Shown here: in pieces, positions 361 to 61,362 of the stretch
Position numbering within the stretch: position 1 is the first letter of the stretch
Layout: every line of letters begins with the position of its first letter
Assembly: GCA_016235025.1 (NCBI GenBank)
Contig: JACRMV010000006.1
Span: 172,951-236,950, forward strand
DNA length: 64,000 bases
Direction: 5' to 3'
Source: Rhodocyclales bacterium
Lineage (GTDB): Bacteria > Pseudomonadota > Gammaproteobacteria > Burkholderiales > Rhodocyclaceae
Notes under the pieces: model-generated
What the model saw: the letters and a program-made list of their open reading frames with translations, nothing else
Database searches by the model: none
Told to the model about the DNA's origin: nothing
Program-made: the position numbers and the translations under genes

Positions 361-385
361 AAAAGTCGGCGCTGGCGAGACGGTG
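361..385 (+). repeat. Dispersed 25-bp motif, copy 1
   Basis: AAAAGTCGGCG-CTGGCGAG-ACGGTG, intergenic. Confidence 0.75.
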
Positions 386-401
386 GCGGGCCCTCCATTG
401 C

Positions 402-449
402 TGCACCGCAATAGCACGCCCGGGAAATTCCTTGCACCGCAATGAGGCA
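402..449. promoter_or_regulatory. Tandem NtrC-like upstream activator sites
   Basis: TGCACCGCAATAGCACG (402-418) and TGCACCGCAATGAGGCA (433-449), 31 bp apart, resemble TGCACC-N5-GGTGCA; about 90-135 bp upstream of the sigma54 promoter. Confidence 0.6.
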
Positions 450-489
450 TTCTGAAGCGCGTGCTGGAACAGCAGAATTATGACAATAG

Positions 490-1065
490 CTACAGCAAAA
501 ACTTCGCCATCGCCACCAGCTCGGCGGCTGTTTTCCCCAGCGGCTGGGCACGTTCCATGGCCAGCTTGCGCAGCGCGCCATAGGCCTGGTCTTCATCCAG
601 CCCGCGCGTCTTCATCAGGATGCCCTTGGCCTTTTCAATCTGCTTGCGCTCGGACAGTTTGCGGGTTGCCGCCGCCAGTTCCTGCTTCAGATTCTGGTGT
701 TCCTCGAAGCGTGCAATGGCCACGTCGACAATCGGCGCAAGCCGCGCCAGATCAAGGTTATCGACCACATACGCCGACACGCCCGCCCTGAATGCGGCGC
801 GCATCACATCGGCATCGCGCTCCTGCGTCAGGACGATGACCGGGCGCGGCATGTCGCGCGTCATCACCGCCAGATTTTCCAGCGTATCGCGTGACGGCGA
901 GTCCGTCTCGATCAAAATCACATCCGATTTGATGGCCTCGACCTGGGCCGCCAGATCCAGCACGGACGGCAATATCGCCGCCACCTGATAGCCCGCCAGA
1001 ACGAGCGCGGAAGACAGCTCGGCCGCCCGCGCCCGGGATTCGTCGATGATGAGAATGCGCAACAT
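490..1065 (-). CDS. nasT: ANTAR-domain response regulator (AmiR/NasT family)
   Basis: MLRILIIDES.. receiver-like domain plus C-terminal ANTAR (ERKQIEKAKGILMK..AYGALRKLAM); start moved to 1065. Confidence 0.85.
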   Translation of the reverse strand: MLRILIIDESRARAAELSSALVLAGYQVAAILPSVLDLAAQVEAIKSDVILIETDSPSRDTLENLAVMTRDMPRPVIVLTQERDADVMRAAFRAGVSAYVVDNLDLARLAPIVDVAIARFEEHQNLKQELAAATRKLSERKQIEKAKGILMKTRGLDEDQAYGALRKLAMERAQPLGKTAAELVAMAKFLL

Positions 1066-1162
1066 GCAGAAAGTGCACGCAAGAGGCGTGCCGCAACGCA
1101 GCACGCCTCTTTGCAGCACAACGGCATCACATGCTTTGGCTTGGCGCAACAGGCAGCAACGG

Positions 1163-1187
1163 GAAAGTCGGCGCGGGTGCTACGGTG
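1163..1187 (+). repeat. Dispersed 25-bp motif, copy 2
   Basis: GAAAGTCGGCG-CGGGTGCT-ACGGTG, intergenic. Confidence 0.65.
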
Positions 1188-1289
1188 CAGGAATCGGCAC
1201 CAGCGGCTTATTTCAGTTGCGAAAAACCCATCTGCCGCATTGACGCGCCAGATGGGTCTGATGAGCACTCAGGGCACCGATCGGGCCAC

Positions 1290-1540
1290 TCAGAACTTAG
1301 CCTCGGCCCAGAGCCAGAACTTGTCGGTATCGACGAACCCGGCCGTTTTGGCATTGAAGGTGGCGTACTTGATGCCGACCAGGTAGTTCTTGGCGATGGC
1401 CTTGGTCGCTTGCAGATCCCATTCCGCGCCATAGTGCGCATTTACGCTATGCACGCCTTTGGCCAGGCCGGCTTCGAGGAAGCTGTAGTCGACGCGGTAA
1501 TCCGCCGGGTTGTTCTTGGCGCCCTGCCCGCCCATCCCGG
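1290..1540 (-). pseudogene. C-terminal remnant of an outer-membrane beta-barrel (alginate-export-like porin typical of nas clusters)
   Basis: NPADYRVDYSFLEAGL..HYGAEWDLQ..VGIKYATF..TDKFWLWAEAKF* shows beta-strand alternation and terminal Phe; no signal peptide, begins right after the PPIase stop. Family from recall. Confidence 0.6.
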
Positions 1541-9165: not shown

Positions 9166-10776
9166 TCAGGGATTTCTGATTTCAGCACCTTTGCGCAGGT
9201 AAAACCACCAGTTCAGTATCAGGCACAGCGCATAGAACACCGCAAAGCCGTACATCGCGTTTTCCGGGGTGCCGGCCTTGATCTGGCCCTTGATGACCTC
9301 CGGTGCGATGAAAGAGCCGTAGGCGGCGACAGCGGACGTCCAGCCAAGCACCGGGCCGGCCTGGACACGGTCGAAAATGACGCCGACGGTGCGGAATGTG
9401 GAGCCATTGCCAATACCGGTGGCGGCAAACAGGACGACGAACACCACGAGGAACTGGGTGAAGTAAATCTCCGGCGTTGCGGAATGATAGGCCTGCATCA
9501 GCGTATAGCCGGCAAAGGTGGAAGCCACCACCATCACCGCCGAAATGATCTGGGTAACGATGGAGCCGCCCACCTTGTCGGAAATCCAGCCGCCCACCGG
9601 ACGGATCAGCGCGCCGACAAAGGGGCCGATCCAGGCGTAGGTCATGGCGGAAGGCGCATTGGGGTTCTTGACGTGGCTCCAGACCTGGGTCGTGGCATCA
9701 AGCAGATGCCGCTCACCAAAGATGATCGTGATGGCGAGCGGCAGAGCCATCGAGAAGCCGATGAAGGAGCCGAAGGTCAGCAGGTACAGCACCGTCAGCG
9801 ACCAGGTGTGTTTGTTCCTGAAAATCGCGAACTGCTTGGCCAGATTCTCCTTCATGGTGCCGAACGCGACCAGCTTCATCATCCCCAGCGTGCCAACGAT
9901 GATCAGCGGCATCACCAGCCACATGCTCAGCAAACCCAGCCCGGTCGGCTTGGGCATGTAGAGGTACAGCCCGAGACCGGCCGGAATGAAAGTCAGGGTA
10001 TACAGCCAGGTGATCTTGATGAATGACATCAAGGTATTCCCGCTCTCGGGGGAAATCTGCAGCAGGTTGTTCATGCCGAACCAGCACAGTACCGACAGCG
10101 GGATCAGGGACAGCGCCCAGGCAAAGCCGGCGTTCTGGATGAAAGTTGGCGTACCGGCAGGAATCTTGCCGAGAATCCAGCCGCTGTCCTTCACCAGCGT
10201 CATCGGTTCGCCGCCTAGGGCGCCAAAGATGCCGACCGTCATTACCAGCGGAATCACTACCTGCATGGTGGTGACGCCGAAGTTGCCCAGTCCGGCATTG
10301 ATGCCGAGCGCCGTGCCTTGCAGGCGCTTTGGAAAGAAGGTGTTGATGTTGCTCATCGAGCTGGCAAAGTTGCCGCCGCCGACCCCCGACCACAGTGCCA
10401 GCATCTGGAACACCCACAGCGGCCACTCCGGATGCTGCAGGGCGACGCCGGTGCCAAGGGCGGGGGCCAGGAGCATGGCGGTGGTCAGAAAGACGGTGTT
10501 GCGTCCGCCGGCGAGGCGGATATAGAACGAAGACGGAATGCGCATGGTCGCGCCCGCCAGCCCGGAAATGGCCGTCAGCGTAAACAGCTCGTCCTTGCTG
10601 AACGGGAAACCCAGGTTGAGCATCTGCACCGTGATGATGCCCCACATCAGCCAGACGGCGAAGCCGCAAAGCAGCGCCGGCACCGAAATCCACAAGTTGC
10701 GGTAGGCGATGCGTTCCCCTGTCGATTCCCAGAACTTCTCGTCCTCGACGTTCCATTCCTTGATATTCGTGCTCAT
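9166..10776 (-). CDS. narK2: NarK2-type nitrate/nitrite antiporter (MFS)
   Basis: WNVEDEKFWES..RNLWISVP; nitrate signature GGGNFASSM; 12+ TM helices. Confidence 0.9.
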   Translation of the reverse strand: MSTNIKEWNVEDEKFWESTGERIAYRNLWISVPALLCGFAVWLMWGIITVQMLNLGFPFSKDELFTLTAISGLAGATMRIPSSFYIRLAGGRNTVFLTTAMLLAPALGTGVALQHPEWPLWVFQMLALWSGVGGGNFASSMSNINTFFPKRLQGTALGINAGLGNFGVTTMQVVIPLVMTVGIFGALGGEPMTLVKDSGWILGKIPAGTPTFIQNAGFAWALSLIPLSVLCWFGMNNLLQISPESGNTLMSFIKITWLYTLTFIPAGLGLYLYMPKPTGLGLLSMWLVMPLIIVGTLGMMKLVAFGTMKENLAKQFAIFRNKHTWSLTVLYLLTFGSFIGFSMALPLAITIIFGERHLLDATTQVWSHVKNPNAPSAMTYAWIGPFVGALIRPVGGWISDKVGGSIVTQIISAVMVVASTFAGYTLMQAYHSATPEIYFTQFLVVFVVLFAATGIGNGSTFRTVGVIFDRVQAGPVLGWTSAVAAYGSFIAPEVIKGQIKAGTPENAMYGFAVFYALCLILNWWFYLRKGAEIRNP

Positions 10777-10796: not shown

Positions 10797-12065
10797 TCAA
10801 ATGGAAGCGGATTGTTGTGCCACCTGGCTCCGGGGCTGGCGGTCAAGTTTCACCGGACGCACCTCGGTCCAGTACATCCAGAGCAGCGATACCCAGACGA
10901 TGCCGAACATCAACATGAAGGAGGAGGAGCGAACACCGGTGAGATCGACCAGCACCCCGAAAATGATGGGCATCAGGAAGCCGCCCAGCCCCCCGGCCAG
11001 ACCCACCACGCCGGAAATCACCCCGATGTTGTGCGGATAGTCATCCGAGATGTACTTGAACACCGACGCCTTGCCGATGGCAAAAGCGACACCCATGGTG
11101 AACAGGATGATGGTGAAGAGTGTGGCGTTAAGACCAATGTGGAAGCTTTGCGGGCCTTTGACGGTCTGGATGACGACCTCGGTTTGCGGATAGGACAACA
11201 GGAACAGGCACAACAGCGACACCCACAGCACCCACCAGGTGACCGTGTGCGCGCCGTACCTGTCTGAAAAATGACCGCCCACCGCGCGCAAGATGCCGCC
11301 CGGGATGCTGAATGCGGCTGCCATCAGCGCGGCGGTCTTGAGATCGAAACCGTATTCACCGATGTAGTACTTGGTCATCCACAGCGCCAGCGCCACATAG
11401 CCGCCGAAGACGATCGAGTAATACTGGCTGTACTTCCACACCTTCGGGTCCTTGAGCACCGCCAGTTGCTCGCGCATGGTGATCGTGCTGGCGACCTTGT
11501 GCGCCGGATCGGAAAAGCTGAAAAACCAGAACAGGACGGCCGTGACCAGCATCAGCACTGCATACACCTGCGGCACCATCGTCCAGCCGTAGGCCACCAC
11601 GATCGCCGGCGCGACCAGCTTGGTCACCGCAGCCCCCGTATTGCCAGCGCCGAAAATTCCCATCGCCAGGCCCTGGCGATTCTTTGGAAACCAGCGTGCG
11701 CAGTACGCGATGCCCACCGTGAACGAGCCCCCCGCCACCCCGACGAACAACCCGGTCACCAGAAATTGCCAGTATTCGGTGCACATTGAAATCAGGTAAA
11801 TCGGCACCACGGTGGACAGCATCAGAATGAAAAAGACCAGACGGCCACCGAAGCGGTCGGTCCACATCCCCAGCGGCAGGCGAATCAGGGAACCGGTGAG
11901 CACCGGCATGGCAATCAGGATGCCGAACTCGGTTTCATTGAGGCCCAGTGATGCCTTGATCGGGATGCCGATCACCGCAAACATCATCCAGATCATGAAG
12001 CACACCGTGAACGCCAATGTGCTTGCGACGACCACCGACCATGCCTTGTATTCCTGCGTTGCCAT
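10797..12065 (-). CDS. narK1: NarK1-type nitrate transporter (MFS)
   Basis: STLAFTVCFMIW..GSLIRLPLG..FGAGNTGAA; precedes narK2. Confidence 0.9.
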   Translation of the reverse strand: MATQEYKAWSVVVASTLAFTVCFMIWMMFAVIGIPIKASLGLNETEFGILIAMPVLTGSLIRLPLGMWTDRFGGRLVFFILMLSTVVPIYLISMCTEYWQFLVTGLFVGVAGGSFTVGIAYCARWFPKNRQGLAMGIFGAGNTGAAVTKLVAPAIVVAYGWTMVPQVYAVLMLVTAVLFWFFSFSDPAHKVASTITMREQLAVLKDPKVWKYSQYYSIVFGGYVALALWMTKYYIGEYGFDLKTAALMAAAFSIPGGILRAVGGHFSDRYGAHTVTWWVLWVSLLCLFLLSYPQTEVVIQTVKGPQSFHIGLNATLFTIILFTMGVAFAIGKASVFKYISDDYPHNIGVISGVVGLAGGLGGFLMPIIFGVLVDLTGVRSSSFMLMFGIVWVSLLWMYWTEVRPVKLDRQPRSQVAQQSASI

Positions 12066-12207: not shown

Positions 12208-12232
12208 AAAAGTCGGCGTTGACGCTACGGCA
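12208..12232 (+). repeat. Dispersed 25-bp motif, copy 3
   Basis: AAAAGTCGGCG-TTGACGCT-ACGGCA, 10 bp beyond the narL stop. Confidence 0.75.
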
Positions 12233-16430: not shown

Positions 16431-17499
16431 CCACGCTACGGATTCCCGGCGTGGCGTGGCGTGGTGGCTGTTTGCCTGTTGCGCGATGGTGTTCGTCACG
16501 CTCGTCATTGGCGGCGTGACCCGGCTCACCCATGCCGGCCTGTCCATCGTCGAGTGGCAACCGCTGATCGGCGCCCTGCCGCCACTCTCCGAGGCGCACT
16601 GGCAGGAACTGTTTGCCAAGTACCAGCAAACGCCGGAATTTCTCCTGCGCAATCACGACATGACGCTTGATGGCTTCAAAACCATCTTCTGGTGGGAATG
16701 GGCACACCGGCTCTCCGGCCGCCTGATCGGCCTGGTGTTTCTGCTGCCCTACCTCTGGTTTCTCGCCAGAGGCCGGCTGCGGGGCATGCTGGCATGGAAG
16801 ATCGCCGGCTTTTTCGTCCTCGGCGGCTTGCAGGGTGCGATGGGCTGGTACATGGTCAAAAGCGGGCTGGTCGATGATCCGCGGGTTTCCCAGTACCGGC
16901 TGGCGGCGCATCTCGGGCTGGCCTTTCTCGTCTTCGGCCTGATGGGGTGGACGGCGCTGGGGCTGATGCAGCCGAGGCGTTCCGCCATCGCCGCATCACC
17001 AACGCCGACTTTTCCCGGCTCTGCTGCGAATGCCTCGCGCTTTACCCTGCGCCTGGGTGCCTTCCTGATCGGGCTGGTTTTCGTGATGGCGCTCTCCGGC
17101 GCGCTGGTCGCCGGCATCCACGCCGGGCTGGCCTACAACACCTTCCCGCTGATGAACGGTGCGTTCCTGCCGCCGGAATCCTTCCTGCTGGAGCCGGTGT
17201 GGCTCAACTTTTTCAGCAACATGGCGACAGTGCAGTTTGACCACCGCCTGCTCGCCTGGACCTTGCTGGCACTGGTACCGTGGTTCGCCCTGCGCGTCTG
17301 GCGTGATTTTCCTGACGCGCGCCCGGCAGCGATGGCCATGAGCCTGTGGCTTCTGTTCCAGGTCAGCCTCGGCATCGGCACGCTGATGATGCGCGTTCCC
17401 GTATCACTCGCCGCCATGCACCAGGCCGGCGCGATGATCCTGTTTGCACTGGTGATCTGGACCAACCATGCCATCCGGCGCGCGAATAGTCACTCGTAG
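16417..17499 (+). CDS. ctaA: Heme A synthase (COX15/CtaA type 2)
   Basis: [45 protein letters not shown]. Confidence 0.93.
16989..17013 (-). repeat. Dispersed 25-bp motif, copy 4 (inside ctaA loop)
   Basis: AAAAGTCGGCG-TTGGTGAT-GCGGCG; encodes AASPTPTF. Confidence 0.75.
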
Positions 17500-21370: not shown

Positions 21371-21378
21371 GTCTTACC

Positions 21379-25962: not shown

Positions 25963-25987
25963 CGCCGCATCACCAGCACCGACTTTT
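25963..25987 (-). repeat. Dispersed 25-bp motif, copy 5
   Basis: AAAAGTCGGTG-CTGGTGAT-GCGGCG, just after the decarboxylase stop. Confidence 0.75.
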
Positions 25988-29144: not shown

Positions 29145-29813
29145 TCAACCTAAGCACGCAGCCAGTTCGGCAATACCGGTTTGCGGCGCAGTACGCGTAA
29201 TCGCCACCAGCGGTACACCGCCGGCATGACAGCGCAGGCTAGCCAGCGTATCGACCAGCGCCACCGAGGATCCCGGCGATTCATTGACCACGATCGCCGT
29301 CACGCCAGCGCCGGCTTTTTGCAGGGCCTCCAGCGCCGTCAGCGTGTGGCTGAGGCTGCCGAGATAGCTGCCGGCAACCAGCACGCAGGGTAATTGACTG
29401 GCAGCAATCCAGTCGCGCACCGTATACGTTTCGTCGAGCGGCGCCATGACGCCGCCAACGCCCTCGATCAGCGTGGGCAAAAACTCGGCGCTGGTGATAC
29501 GGCGTGTCAAGGCAACCAGATCCTCAAAATCCACCCGCCGCCCTTCGCGCGCCGCCGCCAAATCGGGCGACAGGGGCGCGGCAAAGCGCCAGGGCGCGAT
29601 TTCATCCAGCGCAGCGGGCGTTATCTCCCGCCCCAGCGCCTGCAAAATCTGTCCGGCATCGCTTGTCGCAGCCTGCTGCTCATCGAAGCCCGAGAGTAGC
29701 GGCTTATAGCCTGCGGGGCGCAATCCGGCTGCCTGCCAGTGGCGCAGCAGCGCGCAGGTGAGCCAGGTCTTGCCGATATCAGTGCCGGTGCCGGTAATGA
29801 AATGTGTGCCCAT
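29145..29813 (-). CDS. bioD: Dethiobiotin synthase
   Basis: FITGTGTDIGKT, YKP..SG, IEGVGGVM, GSLSHTL. Confidence 0.92.
   Translation of the reverse strand: MGTHFITGTGTDIGKTWLTCALLRHWQAAGLRPAGYKPLLSGFDEQQAATSDAGQILQALGREITPAALDEIAPWRFAAPLSPDLAAAREGRRVDFEDLVALTRRITSAEFLPTLIEGVGGVMAPLDETYTVRDWIAASQLPCVLVAGSYLGSLSHTLTALEALQKAGAGVTAIVVNESPGSSVALVDTLASLRCHAGGVPLVAITRTAPQTGIAELAACLG
29296..29320 (-). repeat. Dispersed 25-bp motif, copy 6 (inside bioD)
   Basis: AAAAGCCGGCG-CTGGCGTG-ACGGCG, one core mismatch. Confidence 0.55.
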
Positions 29814-29831: not shown

Positions 29832-32561
29832 TTAACGCAACGCGCTGGCGACCACTTCGGCGACATCCTTCGCCAGCCCCGCACACGCGGCAATCCGCTC
29901 CAGTTCGAGGCGGGCATGGCCCTGGCGTACGGCATCGAACTGGCGCCAGCGGTCGAAGCTGCGGGCGATGCGGGCAGCCACCTGGGGGTTCAGCGCCTGC
30001 AACGCAATGATGACGTCGGCGGCAAGCCGGTAGCCGCTGCCATCCGCCGCATGAAAATGCCTCGGGTTGGCGGCACAGAAACTGCGCACCAGGGCATAGA
30101 CCTTGTTCGGGTTCTTCAGGTCGAAGGCCGGATGGCGCATCAATTCGCCGACCCGCGCCGTGGTACCGGGCAGGCGCGAGGTGGCCTGCACCTGCAGCCA
30201 CTTGTCCACCACCAGCGCCTCGTCTTTCCATCGGGCATAGAAGTCGGCAAGCGCCGTTACCCGCTCGGAGCAGTCGAGATTGGCCAGGACGCCGAGTGCG
30301 GCGCTGGCATCGGTCATGTTGCCGGCGTCATGCAACTGGGACAGCAGACGCGGCAGCACCGAGGCCGCCAGATAATCCGCATCGCTCTCCGCAAGGTAGC
30401 CAAGACACAGGTTGCGCAAGGCGCGGCGGCCGACCTGGACACCCTCCGGCGCATAGGGTTCGACGGGCGCCAGCGCCTTCCATACGGCCTCGAACCGTTC
30501 GCGCAAGGCGGTGGCCAGATAACGGCGCAGGGCAATGCGGGCGCGATGAATCGCCTCGGGATCGATGACTTCGCCACACCCGGCCATCTCCTCGGCCAGC
30601 ACCTGCTCCGCCGGCAGCGTCAGCGCCTCGGCCGCCAGCGCGGCACTGTCGCCCGCACCCAGGCCGGCGCCGAGGACGCGGCCGCAGGCGGCAACGAACG
30701 AAGCCGGAACCTGACCGGAGGGAATGCAAAGCTGACCGGAGGGAATGCAAGGCCAGTGCACGCCCGCAACCTCCGCCGCAATGCCTGCCCGCAACACGCG
30801 TGTCGCCAGACGCTGGCTCGCCTCCCAGCGATTGAAGGCATCGGAATCGTGCGCCAGAAGGTGTTCCAGCTCGGCATCGCTCTGCTCGCAATCAAGCTGC
30901 ACCGGCGCAGAGAAATTGCGCAGCAGCGAGACGACCGGCGCTGCCGGAATGTCGTCGAAGACGAAGCTCTGCGTGGTTCCGGTGAGCGAGAGCACCCTGT
31001 TCCCGTCAGGAAAACCCGCCGCCAGCGCATCGCGTCCGTCCGGCAGCAGCAAGCCGACAGCGACCGGAATATGCAGCGGGCCATCATCCACCGGCAGGCC
31101 CGCCTCCCGCAGCCGGGCTTCATATGCGGTGGGCGCCAGCGTCTGCGTCAGGGTCAGCGTGTAGCGCCTGGCGGCGGCGTCATAGTTTCCCTCGGCCTTC
31201 AGGCGCGGCGTGCCGGCGCGGGCGTACCAGCGGCGGAACTGCGTCAAATCCACCCCGCTGGCCGCCTCCATCGCTGCGACAAATTCCTCGCAGGTCACAG
31301 CCTGGCCGTCGTGCCGCGCGAAATACATGTCCATGCCCCGGCGAAAAGCCGCTCGCCCGATCAGCGTCTCGATCATGCGCACCACTTCGGCGCCCTTCTG
31401 ATACACGGTGGCGGTGTAGAAATTGTTGATCTCGGCATAGGATGCCGGTCGCACCGGATGCGCCATCGGCCCGGCATCCTCGGGAAACTGGGCGATGCGC
31501 AGGCTGCGCACGTCCTGGATGCGGGTTACTGCGCGCGAATGCACGTCGGCGCCGAACTCCTGGTCGCGGAATACGGTCAGCCCTTCCTTCAGCGACAACT
31601 GGAACCAGTCGCGGCAGGTGACACGGTTGCCGCTCCAGTTGTGGAAGTATTCGTGGCCGACGACGCGGTCGATGGCCTGGTAGTCGGCATCGGTCGCGGT
31701 ATCCGGGCGCGCCAGCACGTATTTGGTGTTGAAAATGTTGAGGCCCTTGTTCTCCATCGCTCCCATGTTGAAATCGCCCACCGCGACGATCATGTAGTGG
31801 TCGAGATCCATCTCCAGGCCGAAGCGTTCCTCGTCCCAGCGCATCGCCTTTTTCAGCGCCGCCAGCGCGTGACCGCACTGGTCGAGCCTGCCCGGCTCGA
31901 CATACACCGCGCAGCGCACCCTGCGGCCGGACGCGGTAACGTGGCTGTCTTCGAGCACGTCGAGTTGCGCCGCCACCAGCGCGAACAGGTAACAGGGCTT
32001 GGCGAAGGGGTCTTCCCAGCGCGCCCAGTGTCGCCCGCCATCCGTTTCACCCCTCGCCACGAGATTGCCGTTGGAAAGCAGGTGCGGAAAACGCTCGCGG
32101 TCGGCCTCGATGGTGCAGGTGTAGCGCGCCATCACATCGGGCCGGTCGGGAAAAAAGCTGATACGGCGGAAACCCTCGGCCTCGCATTGTGTGAAATAAC
32201 CGTCGCGCGAACGGTACAGGCCGGAGAGCTGGGTGTTTTGATCCGGCGCGATGCGCACCACGGTTTCGAGCACGAAAGCATCGGGCAAGGGCGCATGCAC
32301 AGTCAGCGTGTCGTCCGTCAGCGTGTAGCCCGAGGCATCCAGCACCGTATCATCAACGCCGAGTTTTTGCAGATCAAGCGCCACGCCGTCGAGCACCAGC
32401 GCCGCACCCGGCACGCCCTGTAAATTTTTCCGACAATCGAGCCGGGCGCGCACTTCGGCGTAGCCCTGATGAATCGCCACATGAAGATCAACCCTGTCAA
32501 CCCACCAGGCAGGCGGCGCATAGTCCTTGAGATAAATAGCGTGCGGAGTTTCGGTACGCAT
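29832..32561 (-). CDS. pepN: Aminopeptidase N (M1)
   Basis: TQCEAEGFRR, GAMENK, GHEYFHNWSGNRVT..LKEG, TVYQKGAE. Confidence 0.97.
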   Translation of the reverse strand: MRTETPHAIYLKDYAPPAWWVDRVDLHVAIHQGYAEVRARLDCRKNLQGVPGAALVLDGVALDLQKLGVDDTVLDASGYTLTDDTLTVHAPLPDAFVLETVVRIAPDQNTQLSGLYRSRDGYFTQCEAEGFRRISFFPDRPDVMARYTCTIEADRERFPHLLSNGNLVARGETDGGRHWARWEDPFAKPCYLFALVAAQLDVLEDSHVTASGRRVRCAVYVEPGRLDQCGHALAALKKAMRWDEERFGLEMDLDHYMIVAVGDFNMGAMENKGLNIFNTKYVLARPDTATDADYQAIDRVVGHEYFHNWSGNRVTCRDWFQLSLKEGLTVFRDQEFGADVHSRAVTRIQDVRSLRIAQFPEDAGPMAHPVRPASYAEINNFYTATVYQKGAEVVRMIETLIGRAAFRRGMDMYFARHDGQAVTCEEFVAAMEAASGVDLTQFRRWYARAGTPRLKAEGNYDAAARRYTLTLTQTLAPTAYEARLREAGLPVDDGPLHIPVAVGLLLPDGRDALAAGFPDGNRVLSLTGTTQSFVFDDIPAAPVVSLLRNFSAPVQLDCEQSDAELEHLLAHDSDAFNRWEASQRLATRVLRAGIAAEVAGVHWPCIPSGQLCIPSGQVPASFVAACGRVLGAGLGAGDSAALAAEALTLPAEQVLAEEMAGCGEVIDPEAIHRARIALRRYLATALRERFEAVWKALAPVEPYAPEGVQVGRRALRNLCLGYLAESDADYLAASVLPRLLSQLHDAGNMTDASAALGVLANLDCSERVTALADFYARWKDEALVVDKWLQVQATSRLPGTTARVGELMRHPAFDLKNPNKVYALVRSFCAANPRHFHAADGSGYRLAADVIIALQALNPQVAARIARSFDRWRQFDAVRQGHARLELERIAACAGLAKDVAEVVASALR
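30711..30750. repeat. In-frame 21-bp tandem duplication inside pepN
   Basis: CTGACCGGAGGGAATGCAA at 30711-30729 and 30732-30750; protein CIPSGQL-CIPSGQV. Confidence 0.9.
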
Positions 32562-37516: not shown

Positions 37517-40141
<2,625 letters not shown>

Positions 40142-40725: not shown

Positions 40726-41463
40726 TTACATTTCCTCCGCCCGCCACAGGTCAATGCGGTCGCTGAACACCGCACAGACCCCTGCGGCGAACAGCGCATC
40801 GGCCGTAGCGCGATCATTCACCGTATAGCAGGCCACCCGGATGCCGCTGTTACAAATCGGTGCCAGTCGCTCCGGGCTGACCGCCTGCACCGCCGTGTGC
40901 AAAGCCTGCGCGCCAACGGCGGCCAGTTGCTCGCGCCAGTCCGCCGGGATCGTTTCCGTCAGCAGCGCACGCGGCACGGCCGGGGCAAGCTGCATGGCCT
41001 GTTGCAGCGCCAGAGAGGAAAACGAGGACAACACCAGCGCGGCCCCAGGCTGGGCCGCCAGGTGTGCGGCAACGGCGCCGGCCACGATACGCCCCGTTTC
41101 AGCCTCCGTTCCGGCCGAGGGCTTGATCTCGACGTTGGCCCACAAACCCAGCGCGGCGCACAGTTGCAGAGCGGCATGAAAAGTCGGCGCCGGCTCCACG
41201 GCGAAAGCGCGATGATGCTTGCAACCGGCATCAAGACGGGCAATTTCCGCCGCAGTCCTGGCGGCGACCCACCCCTTGCCATTGGTTGTGCGTGCCAGCG
41301 TTTCGTCATGCATCAGGATCGGCACACCGTCAGTCGTCAACATCACGTCGAATTCGACGCCCCGGCAACCCATGCGGGCGGCGATGCGCAGACCGACCAG
41401 CGTGTTCTCCGGCGCCAGCGCTCCACCGCAACGATGCGCGATGATGCGTGGATAGTTGATCAT
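40726..41463 (-). CDS. ugpQ: Glycerophosphodiester phosphodiesterase
   Basis: IIAHRCGGALAPENT, EFDV, MHDETL, NVEIK, YTVND. Confidence 0.92.
   Translation of the reverse strand: MINYPRIIAHRCGGALAPENTLVGLRIAARMGCRGVEFDVMLTTDGVPILMHDETLARTTNGKGWVAARTAAEIARLDAGCKHHRAFAVEPAPTFHAALQLCAALGLWANVEIKPSAGTEAETGRIVAGAVAAHLAAQPGAALVLSSFSSLALQQAMQLAPAVPRALLTETIPADWREQLAAVGAQALHTAVQAVSPERLAPICNSGIRVACYTVNDRATADALFAAGVCAVFSDRIDLWRAEEM
41179..41203 (+). repeat. Dispersed 25-bp motif, copy 8 (inside ugpQ)
   Basis: AAAAGTCGGCG-CCGGCTCC-ACGGCG; antisense to AVEPAPTF. Confidence 0.65.
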
Positions 41464-50720: not shown

Positions 50721-50745
50721 CGCCGTCTCATCAGCGCCGACTTTT
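50721..50745 (-). repeat. Dispersed 25-bp motif, copy 9
   Basis: AAAAGTCGGCG-CTGATGAG-ACGGCG, overlapping the TAA of the ParA-like gene. Confidence 0.75.
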
Positions 50746-51370
50746 ATCCAGCCGTGCTCCAGGCAATCAGCGGTTGCCACTCGGCCCAGTCCTTTTCCGC
50801 ACGCGAGGCGGGCAGATCGAAGATGCTCGCCCCATGCGCCGCCGCCTGCACATAGTTCTGCGTATCGCGCAGGTGGGCTATGACCGGCAGGCCCGTATCG
50901 GCGAGGAAGCGCTCCAACTCACCGGCGGCGCGGGTGCGGGCATCGATGCGCATGGCAACGATGGCAACGAAGGCTTCATGCTTGCGCACCGCTTTTTCCT
51001 CTGCCAGTTGCAGGAGAAAGTCGCGCGTGGCGAGGATGTCGAAAATCGAGGCCTGCAACGGCACGATGACGCGCCTGACCTGCTTCAGCACCTGCGCCAG
51101 TTTCTTGCCATGCAGCCCGGCCGGCGTGTCGAGCACGGCATGGGTAGTGCCTTGTGGCGGCCGCGCCGGATGTCCGTCCGATATCTCCCAGCTGGCGATA
51201 TGCGGCAGCGCCGGCGAGCGCAGCCTCAGCCATTCACGCGATGACTGCTGGCGGTCGATATCCCCCAGCATGACGCGGTTTCCGGCGCGCGCCAGATAGC
51301 CGGCGAGATTGGTCGCCAGCGTGCTCTTGCCGACGCCGCCCTTGGGATTTGCAATCAGAAAGGATTCCAT
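50744..51370 (-). CDS. Short orphan ParA-family ATPase
   Basis: NPKGGVGKST, DIDRQ, VLDTP. Confidence 0.88.
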   Translation of the reverse strand: MESFLIANPKGGVGKSTLATNLAGYLARAGNRVMLGDIDRQQSSREWLRLRSPALPHIASWEISDGHPARPPQGTTHAVLDTPAGLHGKKLAQVLKQVRRVIVPLQASIFDILATRDFLLQLAEEKAVRKHEAFVAIVAMRIDARTRAAGELERFLADTGLPVIAHLRDTQNYVQAAAHGASIFDLPASRAEKDWAEWQPLIAWSTAG

Positions 51371-51374: not shown

Positions 51375-52364
51375 TTATGGTATCAGGATGGTCGAGCCGG
51401 TGGTCTTGCGCGCCGCCATGTCGCGATGCGCCTGCGCCGCGTCCTTGAGCGCATACGTCTGGTTGATTTCAATTTTCACCTGCCCCGACATCACCACGGC
51501 AAAGAGTTCCGCAGCCATGGCCAGCAGATCGGCGCGTGCGGCAGTGTAGGTGAACAAGGTCGGCCGCGTCAGGAACAAGGAGCCACGCCGCGCCAGCTCG
51601 CGCAGGTCGAGCGGCGGCACCGGCCCCGAGGCATTGCCGAAGCTGACCATCAATCCGAGTGGCTGCAAGCAGTCGAGCGAACCGGAGAAGCTGTCCTTGC
51701 CGACCGCGTCGTAGACCACCGGCACTCCCTGCCCGCCGGTGATTTCCTTAACCCGCGCGACAAAATCCTCCCGCGCCGTGACGATGACATGATCGCAACC
51801 ATGGGCACGTGCCACGTCCGCCTTCGCCTCTGTGCTGACCGTGCCGATCACTGTGGCGCCGAGCACTTTCGCCCATTGGCAGGCAATCAATCCAACACCG
51901 CCCGCAGCGGCATGAAACAGGATCGTATCGCCGGGCTTGACGCGGTAAGTGCGGCGCAACAGATACTGCGCCGTGAGGCCGCGCAACATCATCGCCGCCG
52001 CCGTCCTGGAATCGATGGCATCCGGCAGTTTCACCAGACGCCCGGCCGGCAGGTTGCGCACTTCGGCATAGGCGCCCACCGGTTGCAGTGGCCCGTCGGC
52101 GTACACCACCCGATCGCCCACCGCAAACTCTGTCACACCCGGCCCCACGGCTTCGACCACGCCGGCCGCTTCAAGACCGAGACCCGAGGGCAGGGGCAGC
52201 GGATAGAGGCCGCTGCGCTGATAGATGTCGATGAAATTGACGCCGATGGCCTGGTGGCGCACCCGCACTTCGTCCGGCACCGGCGCCGCATCACCAGCGC
52301 CGAGTTTTTCGAAGCACAGGACCTCCGGGCCGCCGCTCTGGTAAAAGCGGATCGCATGCGTCAT
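51375..52364 (-). CDS. qor: NADPH:quinone oxidoreductase (zeta-crystallin family)
   Basis: GVNFIDIYQRSG, HAAAGGVG, RGSLFLTRP. Confidence 0.93.
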   Translation of the reverse strand: MTHAIRFYQSGGPEVLCFEKLGAGDAAPVPDEVRVRHQAIGVNFIDIYQRSGLYPLPLPSGLGLEAAGVVEAVGPGVTEFAVGDRVVYADGPLQPVGAYAEVRNLPAGRLVKLPDAIDSRTAAAMMLRGLTAQYLLRRTYRVKPGDTILFHAAAGGVGLIACQWAKVLGATVIGTVSTEAKADVARAHGCDHVIVTAREDFVARVKEITGGQGVPVVYDAVGKDSFSGSLDCLQPLGLMVSFGNASGPVPPLDLRELARRGSLFLTRPTLFTYTAARADLLAMAAELFAVVMSGQVKIEINQTYALKDAAQAHRDMAARKTTGSTILIP

Positions 52365-54654: not shown

Positions 54655-54775
54655 GAAATACCCTTGGATACGATACTGAAAAAGACGTCATGATAAACCC
54701 GTCAGGGGCGGAACAGGTTCCAAAAGACAATGCCAGTCTGTGGCAGAATCCGTCCATCCACTTGCGGAGACCATC

Positions 54776-55582
54776 ATGAAACGTGTCGTTTTCAATCAAA
54801 AGGGCGGCGTCGGGAAAAGTACCATCACCTGCAACCTGGCGGCCATCAGTGCCGCGCGCGGCACACGCACGCTGGTGGTCGATCTCGATCCCCAATCCAA
54901 TTCGACGCACTATCTGCTGGGATCCGCCGCCAACAACCTGGAAAACACGGCGACCGGCTTCTTTGACCAGATGTTGAATTTCAAGCTGCGGCCGCTGCCG
55001 ACCGAAGACTTCATCGTCGCCACACCGTTCGAAAACCTGTCGTTGCTGCCGGCCGATGCCGCCTTGGAGGAATTGCAGGCCAAGCTTGAATCGCGCTACA
55101 AGATCTACAAGCTGCGCGAAGCGCTCGACGCGCTCGACGAGTTCGATGAAATCTGGATCGACACGCCACCCGCGCTGCACTTCTATACCCGCTCGGCGCT
55201 GATCGCGGCCGATGCCTGCCTGATCCCCTTCGACTGCGACGAATTCGCCCGCCGCGCGCTCTACAGCCTGCTCGACAACGTCACCGAAATTCAAGCCGAT
55301 CACAACGCCGATCTGATCGTCGAGGGCATCATCGTCAACCAGTTCCAGTCGCGGGCGACCTTGCCCCAGGCAATCGTCGAAGAGCTACGCAGCGAAGGGC
55401 TGCCGGTGCTGGCCGCCATGCTTTCCTCCTCGGTCAAAATCAAGGAATCCCACCAGCAGGCGCTGCCGATGATCCACCTCGACCGCAACCACAAGCTGAC
55501 GAATGAATATCTCAGCCTGTTCGACGAGCTCGAAGCGGCGCGCGCTGCGCGCGCCACAGCCGCCACAAAGAAGCGCGCATGA
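54776..55582 (+). CDS. Orphan ParA-family ATPase
   Basis: FNQKGGVGKST, DLDPQSN, IDTPP. Confidence 0.9.
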   Translation: MKRVVFNQKGGVGKSTITCNLAAISAARGTRTLVVDLDPQSNSTHYLLGSAANNLENTATGFFDQMLNFKLRPLPTEDFIVATPFENLSLLPADAALEELQAKLESRYKIYKLREALDALDEFDEIWIDTPPALHFYTRSALIAADACLIPFDCDEFARRALYSLLDNVTEIQADHNADLIVEGIIVNQFQSRATLPQAIVEELRSEGLPVLAAMLSSSVKIKESHQQALPMIHLDRNHKLTNEYLSLFDELEAARAARATAATKKRA

Positions 55583-55623: not shown

Positions 55624-55648
55624 CGCCGTCTCGTCAACACCGACTTTT
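55624..55648 (-). repeat. Dispersed 25-bp motif, copy 10
   Basis: AAAAGTCGGTG-TTGACGAG-ACGGCG between convergent genes. Confidence 0.75.
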
Positions 55649-57305: not shown

Positions 57306-58394
57306 TCAGGTATTTTTTATCACAATATTGGGAAATTTGCTGCTGTGATCCTGTGCCCGCTCCGCCAGCTTGACGGCGACGCGGCGTGCGATCGTGGCAT
57401 AGATTTCGGCGATGCGGCCCTGCGGCTCGGCCGCCACGGTCGGATTTCCGGCATCCGCCTGGACACGAATCGCCATATCGAGCGGCAAGGCGCCGAGCAT
57501 CTCGATGCCGTAGTCCTGCGCCATGCGCTCGCCGCCGCCAGTGCCGAAAATGTGCTCTTCGTGGCCGCACTTCGAACAGATATGGATGCTCATGTTTTCC
57601 ACCACACCGAGAATCGGCACGCCGACTTTTTCGAACATCTTGAGCCCCTTCCGCGCATCGAGCAGCGCGATGTCCTGCGGCGTGGTGACGATCACCGCGC
57701 CGGTGACCGGCACCTGTTGCGACAGGGTGAGCTGGATGTCGCCGGTGCCCGGTGGCATGTCGATGATCAGGTAATCCACATCGCGCCAGCGGGTTTCGGT
57801 CAAAAGCTGCGTCAGCGCCTGGGTCACCATCGGCCCGCGCCAGACCATCGGCTGCTCCGGGTCGATCAGCAGGCCGATCGACATGGCTTGCACCCCATGC
57901 GCGACCATCGGCTCCAGGCCGCGGTTTTCTGCGGCTTCGGGCTGATCGCGAATACCCAGCATCTGCGGCAGCGACGGGCCGTAGATATCCGCATCGAGAA
58001 TGCCGACACTGGCCCCCTCCTTTGCCAGCGCCAGCGCCAGATTCACCGCCGTGGTGGACTTGCCGACGCCGCCCTTGCCGGAAGCCACGGCGATGATGTT
58101 CTTGACACCCGGAATCAGCTTGACGCCGCGCTGCACGGCGTGGGTAACGATTTTGGAATAGACATTGACACTGATGTTGCCGATGCCGGGAACCGTTTTC
58201 AGTTGCGCGATGATGGCGGCACGCAACGTATCGATCTGGCTTTGCGCCGGATAACCCAGTTCGACGTCGAGCGCCACATCGTTGCCGGAAACGCGGATGT
58301 TTTTCGCACTGCGCGTGGTAACGAAATCCTTGCCGGTATTGGGATCGACGACGGCCTTGAGCGCGGCCTGGATGCTTTGTTCGGTGATGGTCAT
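57306..58394 (-). CDS. apbC: Fe-S cluster carrier ATPase ApbC/Mrp
   Basis: SGKGGVGKST, WRGPM, DMPPGTGD, VENMS..CSKC. Confidence 0.96.
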   Translation of the reverse strand: MTITEQSIQAALKAVVDPNTGKDFVTTRSAKNIRVSGNDVALDVELGYPAQSQIDTLRAAIIAQLKTVPGIGNISVNVYSKIVTHAVQRGVKLIPGVKNIIAVASGKGGVGKSTTAVNLALALAKEGASVGILDADIYGPSLPQMLGIRDQPEAAENRGLEPMVAHGVQAMSIGLLIDPEQPMVWRGPMVTQALTQLLTETRWRDVDYLIIDMPPGTGDIQLTLSQQVPVTGAVIVTTPQDIALLDARKGLKMFEKVGVPILGVVENMSIHICSKCGHEEHIFGTGGGERMAQDYGIEMLGALPLDMAIRVQADAGNPTVAAEPQGRIAEIYATIARRVAVKLAERAQDHSSKFPNIVIKNT

Positions 58395-58512
58395 GAAACG
58401 GTATCCGTGAGTATGAAAAGTTGGGAAATTACTTGACTAAACCGCTACAGTATAGCTTCGTCGGGGCTCGTGGCGTGCCTTTGCTAAACTGCTCCGTTAG
58501 TCGAATTTTCTC

Positions 58513-60645
58513 ATGCCCACCATGACTCTGCGCAAGCTCCTCATTACCTCCGCCCTGCCCTACGCCAATGGCGCGATCCATCTCGGCCATCTGGTCGAAT
58601 ATATCCAGACCGATATCTGGGTCCGTTTCCAGAAAATGCGCGGCCATGAATGCTGGTATGTCTGCGCCGACGACACCCACGGCACACCGATCATGCTGCG
58701 CGCCGAGAAGGAAGGCATCACGCCGGAGCAACTGATCGAGCGCGTGCATGCCGAACACAGCCGCGACTTCGCCGGCTTCCATGTCGCCTTCGACAACTAT
58801 TACACAACGCATTCGAACGAGACCCGCGACTATGCCGTTGAAATTTACGGCAAGCTCAAGGCGGCCGACCTGATTGCCGTGCGTGCCGTCGAACAGTTTT
58901 ACGATCCGCTCAAACAGATGTTCCTGCCCGACCGCTTCATCAAGGGCAACTGCCCGAAATGCGGCGCGAAAGACCAATACGGCGACAGTTGCGAAGTCTG
59001 CGGCGCAGTTTATGCGCCGACCGATCTGAACAACCCCTACTCGGCCCTTTCCGGCGCCAAACCCGAGCTGCGCAACTCCGAACATTTCTTTTTCAAACTC
59101 TCCGATCCGCGCTGCCAGGCATTCCTCCGGCAGTGGACCCGCAGTGAAGACCGCTTGCAGCCGGAAGCCGCCAACAAGATGCAGGAATGGCTCGGTGCGG
59201 AAAATGAAAACAAACTCAGCGACTGGGACATCTCGCGCGACGCGCCCTACTTCGGCTTCGAGATTCCCGACGCGCCAGGCAAGTACTTCTATGTCTGGCT
59301 CGACGCCCCGGTCGGTTATATGGGTTCATTCCGGAATCTCTGCGCACAGCGGGGGCTCGACTTCGATGCCTTCTGGCGCAAGGATTCCAGCGTCGAGCTG
59401 ATTCACTTCATCGGCAAGGACATCCTTTATTTCCATGCCCTGTTCTGGCCGGCGATGCTCGAATACACCGGCTATCGCACGCCGAGCAAAATTTTCGCCC
59501 ACGGCTTCCTCACCGTCGACGGCGCCAAGATGAGCAAGTCGCGCGGCACATTCATCACCGCCGAATCCTATCTGGCGCAGGGCCTCAATCCGGAATGGCT
59601 GCGCTACTACTACGCCGCCAAGCTCAACGGCACGATGGAAGACATCGACCTCAACCTCGGTGACTTCGTCGCCCGCGTCAATTCCGACCTGATCGGCAAG
59701 TACATCAACATCGCCAGCCGCTCGGCGAATTTCATTGCCAGCCATTTTTCCAGCCAGCTACTGGATGAGAATTTCGACGAACGCTTCCGCAGCGACCTGC
59801 CTGATCTGGCGCTCGCGGCCGACGAAATCGCGGCGCATTACGAAGCGCGTGATTACGGCCGGGCCATCCGTCGCATCATGGGCCTGGCCGACCAGGTCAA
59901 TCAATACGTCGACCATCACCAACCCTGGAAGCTGGCCAGGCACGGCGGCAAAGAGCGCGAATTGCATGTGGTCTGCACCATGCTGATCAATGCCTTCCGC
60001 CTGCTCACGCTCTATCTCAAGCCGGTGCTGCCCAAGCTTGCCCAGCGCGCCGAGGAATTCCTCAACATTGCGCCGCTGGTCTGGGCCGATGCCGGCCACC
60101 TGCTGCCGCCATCCCATCTGATCAACAGCTACGAACATCTGATGCAGCGCATCGATGCCAAACAGATCGAAGCGCTCGTCGCTGCCAATCGCGAATCGCT
60201 CACGCCTTCCCCCGTTGCCCAGCCGGAGCCGCACTCACCGCAGCGCCACGCCCAGCATCAACAGCATCCCGAGAACAACATGCAAACACCGACCCGCCCC
60301 GTTGCGCCCGCCATCTCGATCGACGACTTCGGCAAGATCGACCTGCGCATCGCCCGCATCGCCGACGCGCAGCATGTCGAGGGCGCCGACAAACTGATTC
60401 GCCTGAGCCTCGATCTCGGCGAAGGCAGCACGCGCCAGGTCTTCGCCGGCATCAAGTCGGCCTACGACCCGGCACGGCTGGTTGGCCGTCTCACCGTGAT
60501 GGTCGCCAACCTCGCTCCGCGCAAGATGAAATTCGGCCTCTCCGAAGGCATGGTGCTGGCCGCCTCCGATGTCGACGGAGAAACGCCCGGCCTGTTCCTG
60601 CTCTCCCCCGACAGCGGCGCGACACCCGGCATGCGCGTCAAGTAA
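58513..60645 (+). CDS. metG: Methionine--tRNA ligase with C-terminal tRNA-binding domain
   Basis: [41 protein letters not shown]. Confidence 0.98.
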
Positions 60646-60679
60646 GTTTCCGCAATCTTCAACCCCAAAGGAGTTTCAC

Positions 60680-61276
60680 ATGGCTGTACTCGTCGGCAAA
60701 AAAGCCCCCGATTTCACTGCAACTGCCGTCTATGGCGACAACGACATAAAAGAACTCACGCTCTCCTCGCTGCAAGGCAAGTACGTCGTGCTGTTTTTCT
60801 ATCCGCTCGACTTCACCTTCGTCTGCCCGTCCGAACTGATCGCCTTCGATCGCCGCCTCGAAGAATTCAGGAAGCGCAATGTCGAGGTCATCGGCTGTTC
60901 GATCGACTCGCAATTCACGCACCTGGCCTGGAAAAACACGCCGGTGGAAAAAGGCGGCATCGGCCAGGTCGGCTATCCCCTGGTTGCCGACATCACCCAC
61001 GCCATTTGCCAGGCCTATGACGTCGAAGCCGCCGAGGGCGTCGCCTTCCGCGGCTCCTTCCTGATCGACCAGGCCGGCGTGGTCCAGCACCAGATCGTAA
61101 ACAACCTGCCGCTCGGCCGCGACATCGACGAGATGCTGCGTATCGTCGATGCCCTGCAATTCACCGAAGCGCACGGCGAAGTCTGCCCGGCCGGCTGGCA
61201 AAAGGGCAAGACCGGCATGCAGGCCTCGCCCGACGGCGTCGCCAGATACCTTGCCGAACACGCCCAGGCGCTCTGA
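60680..61276 (+). CDS. Typical 2-Cys peroxiredoxin (AhpC/Prx1)
   Basis: FFYPLDFTFVCPSE and GEVCPAGW. Confidence 0.95.
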   Translation: MAVLVGKKAPDFTATAVYGDNDIKELTLSSLQGKYVVLFFYPLDFTFVCPSELIAFDRRLEEFRKRNVEVIGCSIDSQFTHLAWKNTPVEKGGIGQVGYPLVADITHAICQAYDVEAAEGVAFRGSFLIDQAGVVQHQIVNNLPLGRDIDEMLRIVDALQFTEAHGEVCPAGWQKGKTGMQASPDGVARYLAEHAQAL

Positions 61277-61291
61277 GCGCCGCTGCCCCGC

Positions 61292-61321
61292 AACCGCCCC
61301 GCCCTCCGGGGCGGTTTTTTG
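61292..61321 (+). terminator. Rho-independent terminator
   Basis: AACCGCCCC-GCCCTCC-GGGGCGGTT followed by TTTT. Confidence 0.85.
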
Positions 61322-61337
61322 CCCGCCGCCTTCCTGC

Positions 61338-61362
61338 CACCGTATTACCAACGCCGACTTTT
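61338..61362 (-). repeat. Dispersed 25-bp motif, copy 11
   Basis: AAAAGTCGGCG-TTGGTAAT-ACGGTG, 40 bp upstream of the CHASE2 gene. Confidence 0.75.

Follow-up and report, generated by a model that had tools for sequence, protein, structure and literature searches.

A 64,000-nt stretch of the genome of a Rhodocyclales bacterium (contig JACRMV010000006.1 of assembly GCA_016235025.1, positions 172,951 to 236,950; the whole of this stretch is hereafter “the window”) carries 14 copies of a real and sharply defined 25-nt word, whose genomic behavior resembles above all that of DNA uptake sequences, of which it would be a third kind. Our preferred reading, to which we assign a probability of about 0.5, is that the 25-mer serves the Sterolibacteriaceae (Rugosibacter, Sulfuritalea, and Sulfurisoma) as a family-specific sequence for DNA uptake (self-recognition); as such it would be analogous to, and not homologous with, the DNA uptake sequence (DUS) of Neisseriaceae and the uptake signal sequence (USS) of Pasteurellaceae. 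The word is abundant, has sharp limits at both ends and is restricted taxonomically; it shows no strand polarity, favors one reading frame within genes, originated there by substitution and is accompanied by a graded cloud of mismatched forms. The source organism is from groundwater or sludge and is Rugosibacter-like, its PepN sharing 96% identity with the PepN of a Rugosibacter sp. metagenome-assembled genome (MAG).

Definition of the 25-mer and its origin at the DNA level

Within the window, the exact core AAAAGTCGGYG occurs nine times (0.06 occurrences expected from dinucleotide-preserving shuffles), and eight of the nine are part of full motif copies. The degenerate 23-nt pattern (≤2 mismatches) recovered 14 copies against 0.30 expected, and a 25-nt weight matrix built from these 14 scored them at 28.9 to 40.1 bits, with the next best site in the window reaching 15.5 bits. 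All 11 copies listed by the original prediction are real and lie where it placed them, save that the copy it began at 29296 spans 29295 to 29319; its total was too low, and the three copies that it overlooked share the core variant AAAACTCGGCG (29480 on the plus strand, 32367 and 52308 on the minus strand). The consensus of the window copies is AAAAGTCGGCG-YTGG(C/T)G-nn-ACGGYG, which can also be written AAAAGTCGGCG-YTGGTGATACGGCG.

A collection holding one genome per species was scanned with the degenerate 23-mer, yielding at least 120 matching stretches in fixed 8-kb tiles. The 204 copies in 120 genome tiles gave the clade consensus AAAAGTCGGCGCTGGCG-rn-ACGGCG, with information of ∼1.2 to 2.0 bits per position at positions 1 to 17 and 20 to 25 and ∼0.5 bits at positions 18 and 19. 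Information at every flanking position was close to zero, placing the limits of the motif at exactly positions 1 and 25; it follows that the motif is a self-contained, asymmetric 25-mer rather than the end of some longer element. Bases T6, C7, G8, G9, C21, G22, and G23 are invariant. The description of the motif as bipartite in the original prediction holds in part: the YTGGYG stretch between core and tail is also conserved, so that only positions 18 and 19 are free. The 25-mer is non-palindromic and without self-complementarity, and the sub-repeat GGCG can be read in it three times (TCGGCG, CTGGCG, and ACGGCG). Its total information is ∼40 bits, whereas simple arithmetic indicates that ∼14 bits would suffice to specify a motif of this frequency; the difference fits drive or copying rather than an ordinary family of binding sites. 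An Rfam scan of the window found no family overlapping any motif copy, and when the literature was searched for the motif and for parts of it, as read from either strand, only unrelated eukaryotic primers matched. The motif is not described in the searchable literature.

Seven of the 14 window copies are intergenic and seven lie inside Pfam-confirmed genes (ctaA, bioD twice, pepN, alaS, the GDPD gene, and qor), and the earlier assignment of 7 of 11 copies to intergenic DNA is borne out. As 25 nt is not a multiple of 3, a copy within a gene cannot be an in-frame insertion. The pepN copy falls in a variable stretch near the N terminus, where alignment with 12 distant homologs needs no indel. In a codon alignment of nine pepN orthologs, Thiobacillus, Gallionellaceae, and Sulfuritalea encode L-Q-(A/S)-V-(G/S/T)-(L/I)-D-G-x-A at this place (e.g., CAG GCG GTC GGC ATC GAC GGC GTG GCG), and the Rugosibacter lineage encodes Q-K-(L/V)-G-V-(G/D)-(D/N)-T-A (e.g., CAA AAA GTC GGC GTC GGT AAC ACG GCG), a lineage difference from which it follows that several amino acid replacements created the DNA word. 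A count no higher than that of a codon-preserving shuffle had been named in the original prediction as grounds for refuting the motif; across 38 window genes, 300 synonymous-codon shuffles gave a mean of 0.44 and a maximum of 3 copies against the 7 observed (16-fold), which does not refute it. The proteins of the window are somewhat “motif-friendly,” yet the signal resides in the DNA itself. The frame xxA-AAA-GTC-GGC dominates among in-gene copies, and the frame encoding K-S-R-R-W-R-D-G is almost unused; all four sense copies in window genes (bioD 29319, pepN 32367, alaS 38519, and qor 52308) use the former and encode K-(V/L/A)-G-(A/V)-(G/D)-x-(T/A)-(A/V). Mismatched forms of the motif are graded in number (45, 84, 52, 28, 16, and 7 copies at 0, 1, 2, 3, 4, and 5 or more mismatches, respectively, against none in 1 Mb of controls), and the same graded excess of mismatched forms was reported by Bakkali for uptake sequences (PMC1939737).

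Orientation is unrelated to transcription and there is no strand polarity, as the original prediction had it. Across tiles, the G-rich strand carried 61 copies and the opposite strand 53 (GC-skew test, P = 0.51), and in-gene copies were divided between 58 sense and 53 antisense. GC skew in the window is uniformly negative, with 9 of the 14 copies on the G-rich strand (P = 0.42). Neighboring copies are random in both their orientations and their distances, without regional clustering. Intergenic DNA holds about half of the copies, often next to the 3′ ends of genes or just past stop codons, and three of the seven intergenic window copies begin 0 to 10 nt past a stop codon.

Restriction to the Sterolibacteriaceae

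Among the matches listed from the collection scan, nearly all are from Sulfuritalea, Sulfurisoma, Rugosibacter, or MAGs labelled Rhodocyclaceae or Rhodocyclales, and the isolate Sulfurisoma sediminicola BSN1 carries the motif (tile L030). Rugosibacter, Sulfuritalea, and Sulfurisoma all belong to the NCBI family Sterolibacteriaceae. Two or more copies were found in 65 of the 120 fixed 8-kb tiles, giving an ascertainment-free extra-copy rate of 0.098 per kb. To sample density without bias, loci were picked by pepN and not by the motif. In this sample, 105 kb of Rugosibacter and Sulfuritalea DNA held 16 copies (Rugosibacter-like MAGs: L321, 4 copies in 14 kb; L322, 3 copies in 23 kb; L324, 4 copies in 23 kb; Sulfuritalea MAGs: L325, 3 copies in 23 kb; L329, 2 copies in 23 kb) versus 0 copies in 68 kb of Thiobacillus and Gallionellaceae DNA (23 kb each of Thiobacillus sedimenti, L326; T. 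denitrificans, L327; and a Gallionellaceae MAG, L328). The PepN proteins of these three motif-free genomes are equally similar to that of the window (75 to 78% identity). As a negative control, 80 further pepN loci of other lineages, mostly distant relatives, were taken from a metagenome pepN scan; these 1.03 Mb held a single motif copy, in the sole close relative there, and the 11-mer core occurred 0 times. Among the matches listed and the controls, the motif is restricted to one family, the Sterolibacteriaceae.

In the genomes of Rugosibacter, Sulfuritalea, and Sulfurisoma the density is about one copy per 5 to 10 kb, at which a genome of 3 to 4 Mb would hold roughly 300 to 800 copies; the guess of hundreds per genome in the original prediction is thus supported by the unbiased samples. 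A mild lineage dialect is found at positions 16 to 19, where GGTGATACGG is preferred in Rugosibacter-like genomes, including that of the window, and GGCGGGACGG in the others. Three tiles labelled as Thiobacillus or Burkholderiaceae MAGs (L022, L024, and L089) contain perfect copies, and genuine Thiobacillus has none; the motif may flag mis-binned contigs in these three cases.

The motif was also present in at least 120 stretches of IMG/VR (L121 to L240), one of which includes the chromosomal gene rdgC. Phage-type genes (DnaB, primase, RecE/RecT, and DNA methyltransferase) were found on some of the motif-bearing viral contigs. The extra-copy rate on viral contigs was 0.040 per kb, 2.4 times lower than the 0.098 per kb of host tiles. 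The motif could be used to assign phages that bear it to Sterolibacteriaceae hosts. Island-like DNA, in a small sample of ∼20 kb (window 32.6 to 36.1 kb, the defense island of L324, and the efflux cluster of L322), contained zero copies. The first of these (32600 to 36100) has the look of an accessory island, with a GC content of 0.546 (against ∼0.62) and two PEP-CTERM proteins. The defense island of L324, a Rugosibacter-like MAG, occupies positions 18152 to 22682 and encodes DUF6088/AbiEii, an Mrr-like nuclease, and HamA with a helicase (Hachiman-like); it adjoins an interrupted RND efflux gene, and the 9-kb stretch is free of copies.

Copies in the window and at orthologous sites

Judged by Pfam annotation, the window is an ordinary chromosomal region. 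Its genes include a narGHJ/narK/narXL cluster, ctaA, greB, fliD-K, rdgC, bioD, pepN, bioA, and alaS, as well as dnaE, eptA, two orphan ParA-like genes, maeB, a Crp/Fnr gene, mrp, metG, and mlaE. The only Rfam match in the window was a tRNA gene (42980 to 43053, plus strand). The individual copies are listed in Table 1.

Table 1. The 14 copies of the 25-mer in window coordinates, with weight-matrix scores and genomic context (in the text, single coordinates of minus-strand copies are those of the higher end)
Copy	Position	Strand	Score (bits)	Context
AAAAGTCGGCGCTGGCGAGACGGTG	361..385	+	39.0	Intergenic, 6-10 nt past stop of upstream plus-strand ORF, between convergent genes
GAAAGTCGGCGCGGGTGCTACGGTG	1163..1187	+	32.2	Intergenic, between ANTAR regulator gene and PPIase gene (both minus strand), antisense to transcription
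AAAAGTCGGCGTTGACGCTACGGCA	12208..12232	+	35.1	Intergenic, between narL-like and narK-like genes (both minus strand), antisense
AAAAGTCGGCGTTGGTGATGCGGCG	16989..17013	-	39.3	In ctaA/COX15 (plus-strand gene), antisense; ortholog copy in MAG UBA5602
AAAAGTCGGTGCTGGTGATGCGGCG	25963..25987	-	37.7	Intergenic, 6 nt past stop of Orn/Lys/Arg decarboxylase gene, upstream of rdgC
AAAAGCCGGCGCTGGCGTGACGGCG	29295..29319	-	33.6	In bioD, sense, encodes KAGAGVTA; orthologous copies in L321 and L322
AAAACTCGGCGCTGGTGATACGGCG	29480..29504	+	40.1	In bioD, antisense; orthologous copy in L321
AAAACTCGGCGTTGATGATACGGTG	32343..32367	-	38.6	In pepN, sense, encodes QKLGVDDTV at aa 80-88
GAAAGTCGGCGCTGGCGTGACGGCG	38495..38519	-	34.5	In alaS, sense, encodes LKVGAGVTA; orthologous copy in Sulfuritalea MAG
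AAAAGTCGGCGCCGGCTCCACGGCG	41179..41203	+	28.9	In glycerophosphodiester phosphodiesterase (GDPD) gene, antisense; weakest copy
AAAAGTCGGCGCTGATGAGACGGCG	50721..50745	-	40.0	Intergenic; first two A are part of TAA stop of small orphan ParA-like gene; tail is one arm of a weak hairpin, followed by T run
AAAACTCGGCGCTGGTGATGCGGCG	52284..52308	-	37.7	In quinone-oxidoreductase-like gene (qor), sense, encodes KLGAGDAA
AAAAGTCGGTGTTGACGAGACGGCG	55624..55648	-	36.9	Intergenic, downstream of second ParA-like gene
AAAAGTCGGCGTTGGTAATACGGTG	61338..61362	-	38.4	Intergenic, 40 nt upstream of CHASE2 cyclase gene; strong hairpin+T7 terminator-like site 24 nt away

Two sites in the window fall short of a copy. 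The degenerate sequence AATTTTCGGCGCTGGCAATACGGGG (11634 to 11658, minus strand; 15.5 bits) lies inside a narK-like gene and may be a decayed or nascent copy. In mrp/apbC, a core-only site (57620 to 57630, minus strand) encodes the conserved peptide FEKVGVP and lacks the tail; the match arose by chance in coding sequence, so the core alone is not diagnostic. The two ParA-like genes (50744 to 51370, minus strand, and 54740 to 55582, plus strand) are each directly trailed by a copy, overlapping the stop codon in the first case and lying ∼65 nt past the end in the second. This adjacency could be a coincidence (roughly 2%, estimated post hoc) or may point to some connection with DNA positioning.

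At orthologous sites, both persistence and turnover are found. The alaS copy is kept in a Sulfuritalea MAG (L016, 6487 to 6511), with 22 of 25 positions matching at 76% overall identity, and the ctaA copy is kept in MAG UBA5602 (L017, 2773 to 2797), with 23 of 25 positions matching at 71% overall identity. Past the second ParA-like gene, site 55648 forms an island of identity within an otherwise unalignable spacer in L114 and L116. Site 61362 in L116 has retained the core and has a decayed tail, and site 25987 is kept in the 96%-identical relative L321 and absent in L026. Relative to L321, all four sites of the shared 14 kb are present and differ at 8 of 100 positions, and the shared copies are thus no better conserved than the surrounding DNA. 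In pepN of L322 and L323 (∼10190 to 10260), seven inserted codons (L V E T H R A) fall exactly within the site at which relatives have the motif, separating its head from its tail.

Uptake sequence or another sequence-specific process

With readings as repetitive extragenic palindromes (REP and their REPIN doublets) or miniature inverted-repeat transposable elements (MITEs), polar signals, palindromic regional signals, promoters, terminators or RNAs, protein artifacts, and regulons excluded, as detailed below, what remains is a sequence-specific process that favors the word. That process favors it wherever it is tolerated, in either orientation, at the expense of protein sequence and in one family only. 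To our knowledge, the sole described process with such a signature is uptake bias in natural transformation followed by recombination, and an uptake sequence is therefore rated the best explanation; from this signature we infer that the driving force is uptake bias and not some other sequence-specific process. A part of the transformation machinery exposed at the cell surface, with a minor type IV pilin as the likeliest candidate, would bind double-stranded DNA carrying AAAAGTCGGCGCTGGCG-nn-ACGGCG in either orientation, and DNA fragments of the bacterium's own family would be preferentially taken up and recombined. Chromosomal sites mutating toward the motif would then be over-transmitted, with mutation and uptake bias together acting as a molecular drive of the kind described by Bakkali (PMC1939737). 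Copies would accumulate genome-wide where tolerated: between genes, above all directly after stop codons, and within genes in those frames of variable protein segments that permit them. The original prediction had proposed an “uptake-like or chromosome-organising” signal. Its first half fits well, because the motif is restricted to one family, occurs in both orientations and in genes as well as spacers, and has a frame bias, an origin by substitution and graded mismatched forms; its second half fits more poorly, because there is no polarity and no regional clustering and because ∼40 bits are present where ∼14 would be sufficient.

The likeness to known uptake sequences extends to several traits. 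The DUS of Neisseriaceae is the 12-mer ATGCCGTCTGAA with its dialects, bound by the minor pilin ComP, and DUS and USS alike occur at a density of ∼1 per kb. The USS of Pasteurellaceae has a 9-nt core (AAGTGCGGT or ACAAGCGGT) with phased AT-rich flanks, ∼30 nt overall. As with the 25-mer, the DUS is a non-palindromic word of one betaproteobacterial family, present in hundreds or more copies per genome in both orientations, in genes with a frame bias and in spacers near gene ends, with lineage variants and a graded excess of mismatched forms. It differs in length (12 nt versus 25 nt), in density (∼1 per kb versus ∼1 per 5 to 10 kb) and in its inverted-pair terminators, which are almost absent for the 25-mer; there is no overall sequence homology, and no ComP ortholog among the named matches is attributable to Sterolibacteriaceae. 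The USS shares with the 25-mer an extended asymmetric form of ∼25 to 30 nt in which a strong 5′ block is followed by a phased element downstream, accumulation in coding regions by substitution that affects peptides, and a lack of strand polarity. However, the downstream element of the 25-mer is GC-rich (ACGGCG) and not an AT tract, its density is lower, and its carriers belong to a different bacterial class and are free-living in groundwater and sludge. The head AAAAGTCGG resembles the USS aAAGTGCGG minus one base, and the tail AGACGGC is part of the reverse complement of the DUS (TTCAGACGGCAT), maybe by chance; both are resemblances only, a lead and not evidence. A minor pilin, ComN/PpdA, has been proposed as the USS receptor (PMC12616744), and DUS and USS have a comparable frame bias and an association with terminators (10.1101/2025.10.24.684340).

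Several observations weigh against an uptake sequence. About half of the uptake sequences in known families sit in terminators (10.1101/2025.10.24.684340), and the many inverted pairs at terminators that mark DUS and USS were not found for the 25-mer, with only 1 tight inverted pair in ∼400 copies (L075, 1359/1413). Its density is 5 to 10 times below that of DUS and USS, and its 25 nt exceed the 12-nt DUS and the 9-nt USS core. A literature search returned no report of natural transformation in any member of the Sterolibacteriaceae. Regarding a receptor, a word search for ComP matched Neisseria only, and a ComP profile search gave 528 matches at E ≤1e-10, the named ones being from Neisseriaceae, Crenobacter, and Stenoxybacter, in a search that covered no whole Sterolibacteriaceae genome. 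A pilin regex search of all the DNA examined found only three MSHA/pseudopilin-like open reading frames (ORFs), which were uninformative. Some viral contigs (e.g., L170, L140, L137, L129, L177, and L231) carry 3 to 4 copies within 6 to 10 kb. Finally, several intergenic copies persist at orthologous positions across genomes of ∼77% identity, a persistence that a site-specific function would equally explain.

Two details touch on these points. The single tight pair of L075 has 25-nt arms 5 nt apart that would form a perfect A-tract/hairpin/T-tract, like the bidirectional terminators common for DUS and USS. The ORF at 60659 to 61351 (minus strand), beside copy 61362, was considered as a possible pilin and rejected, as its translation looks like antisense noise of a plus-strand gene.

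The main rival to the uptake reading is an intracellular binder: the 25-mer could be the binding site of an abundant, family-specific DNA-binding protein serving nucleoid organization, global regulation or the bookkeeping of replication and segregation, with copies selected for that function. We consider this unlikely. The conserved islands that intergenic copies form in otherwise unalignable spacers of three genomes speak for it, as does the finding that about half of the copies are intergenic though spacers make up roughly a tenth of the DNA. The copies trailing both orphan ParA-like genes of the window point the same way, and the triple GGCG sub-repeat could suit a multi-domain binder. Yet the copies within genes, half of the total and in both orientations, were built by altering protein sequences, a high price for a mere binding site; ∼40 bits are far above the need for that number of sites, neither polarity nor regional clustering is seen, and the copies shared with the 96%-identical relative, at 8 differences in 100 positions, fare no better than the DNA around them. 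Moreover, no nucleoid protein is known to have a site so long and asymmetric (cf. matS, parS, the SlmA-binding site [SBS], the Noc-binding site [NBS], and KOPS). Like the 25-mer, Chi, KOPS, matS, parS, and the SlmA- and Noc-binding sites are over-represented chromosomal words recognized by proteins in known systems; they differ in being 8 to 16 nt long and either strongly strand-polarized (Chi and KOPS) or palindromic, regional and present in tens of copies (matS, parS, SBS, and NBS), none of which is seen in the 25-mer.

A doubtful alternative, ranked after the intracellular binder, is that the 25-mer is the recognition word of a novel sequence-specific machinery, for biased gene conversion or repair or for self-marking, and not the tag of a pilus receptor; such a machinery would impose the 25-nt word on the genomes of the family even at a cost to its proteins, and the word would then belong to a new category of genome-wide drive signals. 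Improbable, in our view, is a “self” mark read by a DNA-processing or defense system (a Chi-like modulator of a nuclease, or a signal sparing the cell's own DNA) that would be favored genome-wide and copied by resident phages. The motif is indeed family-specific, genome-wide and of high information, and it is present in many viral contigs, some with phage replication or recombination genes and 3 to 4 copies in ∼9 kb. Chi and other known signals that modulate nucleases are short words strongly biased to one orientation relative to replication, whereas the 25-mer lacks co-orientation (61 versus 53); in addition, the viral extra-copy rate is lower than that of the host, not higher, and no associated system was seen.

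A tiny mobile element (remnants or active copies of a MITE, or a REP/REPIN mobilized by a RAYT transposase), or the target sites of one, would account for a dispersed, family-restricted repeat that is often in spacers near gene ends, and REP, REPIN, and MITE sequences share with the 25-mer that they are short, abundant and often extragenic near gene 3′ ends. This origin is very improbable: REPs are imperfect palindromes that lie almost entirely outside genes and multiply by insertion, whereas the 25-mer is asymmetric, with the near absence of tight inverted pairs given above, and half intragenic, its in-gene copies built by point substitutions without an indel. There is no flanking conservation or target duplication, with zero information outside the 25 nt, and 25 nt cannot be inserted in frame; the in-gene copies already contradict an element. 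The least credible explanation, a by-product of a recurrent protein motif (K-V-G-A-G-x-T-A) and codon bias or else a promoter or terminator element, could draw on the peptide encoded in one shared frame by four window copies, on a YTGACG resembling a −35 box in two copies and on terminator-like hairpins adjoining two copies, but it is already refuted by the intergenic half of the copies, the antisense orientation of about half of the in-gene copies and an orientation unrelated to transcription. Also against it are the synonymous shuffle (0.44 versus 7), the lack of a conserved −10 box or partner arm and of any Rfam family, and intrinsic-terminator and sigma-70 promoter scans in which counts were not above shuffles and sites were not systematically tied to copies.

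Other candidates were rejected individually: a sigma-54 promoter, for which the GG-to-GC spacing, checked by hand, is off by 3 nt; a type I restriction site, as there is conservation of the bases in between and the word is enriched rather than avoided; Chi and KOPS, for the missing co-orientation with replication noted above; parS, matS, SlmA, or Noc-type sites, as the 25-mer is asymmetric and occurs on many contigs and at many positions within the same genomes; an ordinary transcription-factor regulon or promoter element, given that half of the copies are intragenic, with random orientation and ∼40 bits, and that promoter-like matches fall elsewhere than on the copies; and a structured RNA, as copies have no Rfam match and lie on both strands relative to transcription. 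The exclusion by sequence of REP, Chi, KOPS, parS, matS, dif, and the uptake sequences of Neisseria and Pasteurellaceae in the original prediction holds.

Whatever its function, a word of ∼40 bits has been written into protein-coding genes across several genera and is not explained by any described system. Its function is directly testable because cultured isolates exist, S. sediminicola BSN1 among the carriers. Sequence-specific DNA uptake has been known for decades in two families only, the Neisseriaceae and Pasteurellaceae, both host-associated (10.1101/2025.10.24.684340; PMC1939737), and uptake sequences are treated as confined to these two (10.1101/2025.10.24.684340). If the uptake reading is true, the 25-mer would be a natural test of molecular-drive theory, because it is longer and sparser than the known words, and it would offer a new receptor-DNA pair for study, a taxon marker for the binning of MAGs and a practical tag for the genetic tractability of denitrifiers, sulfur oxidizers, and degraders of polycyclic aromatic hydrocarbons that are hard to manipulate. 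It would be a third, independently evolved uptake word, in free-living Betaproteobacteria of groundwater and sludge, and self-preferring transformation would then be no peculiarity of mucosal commensals.

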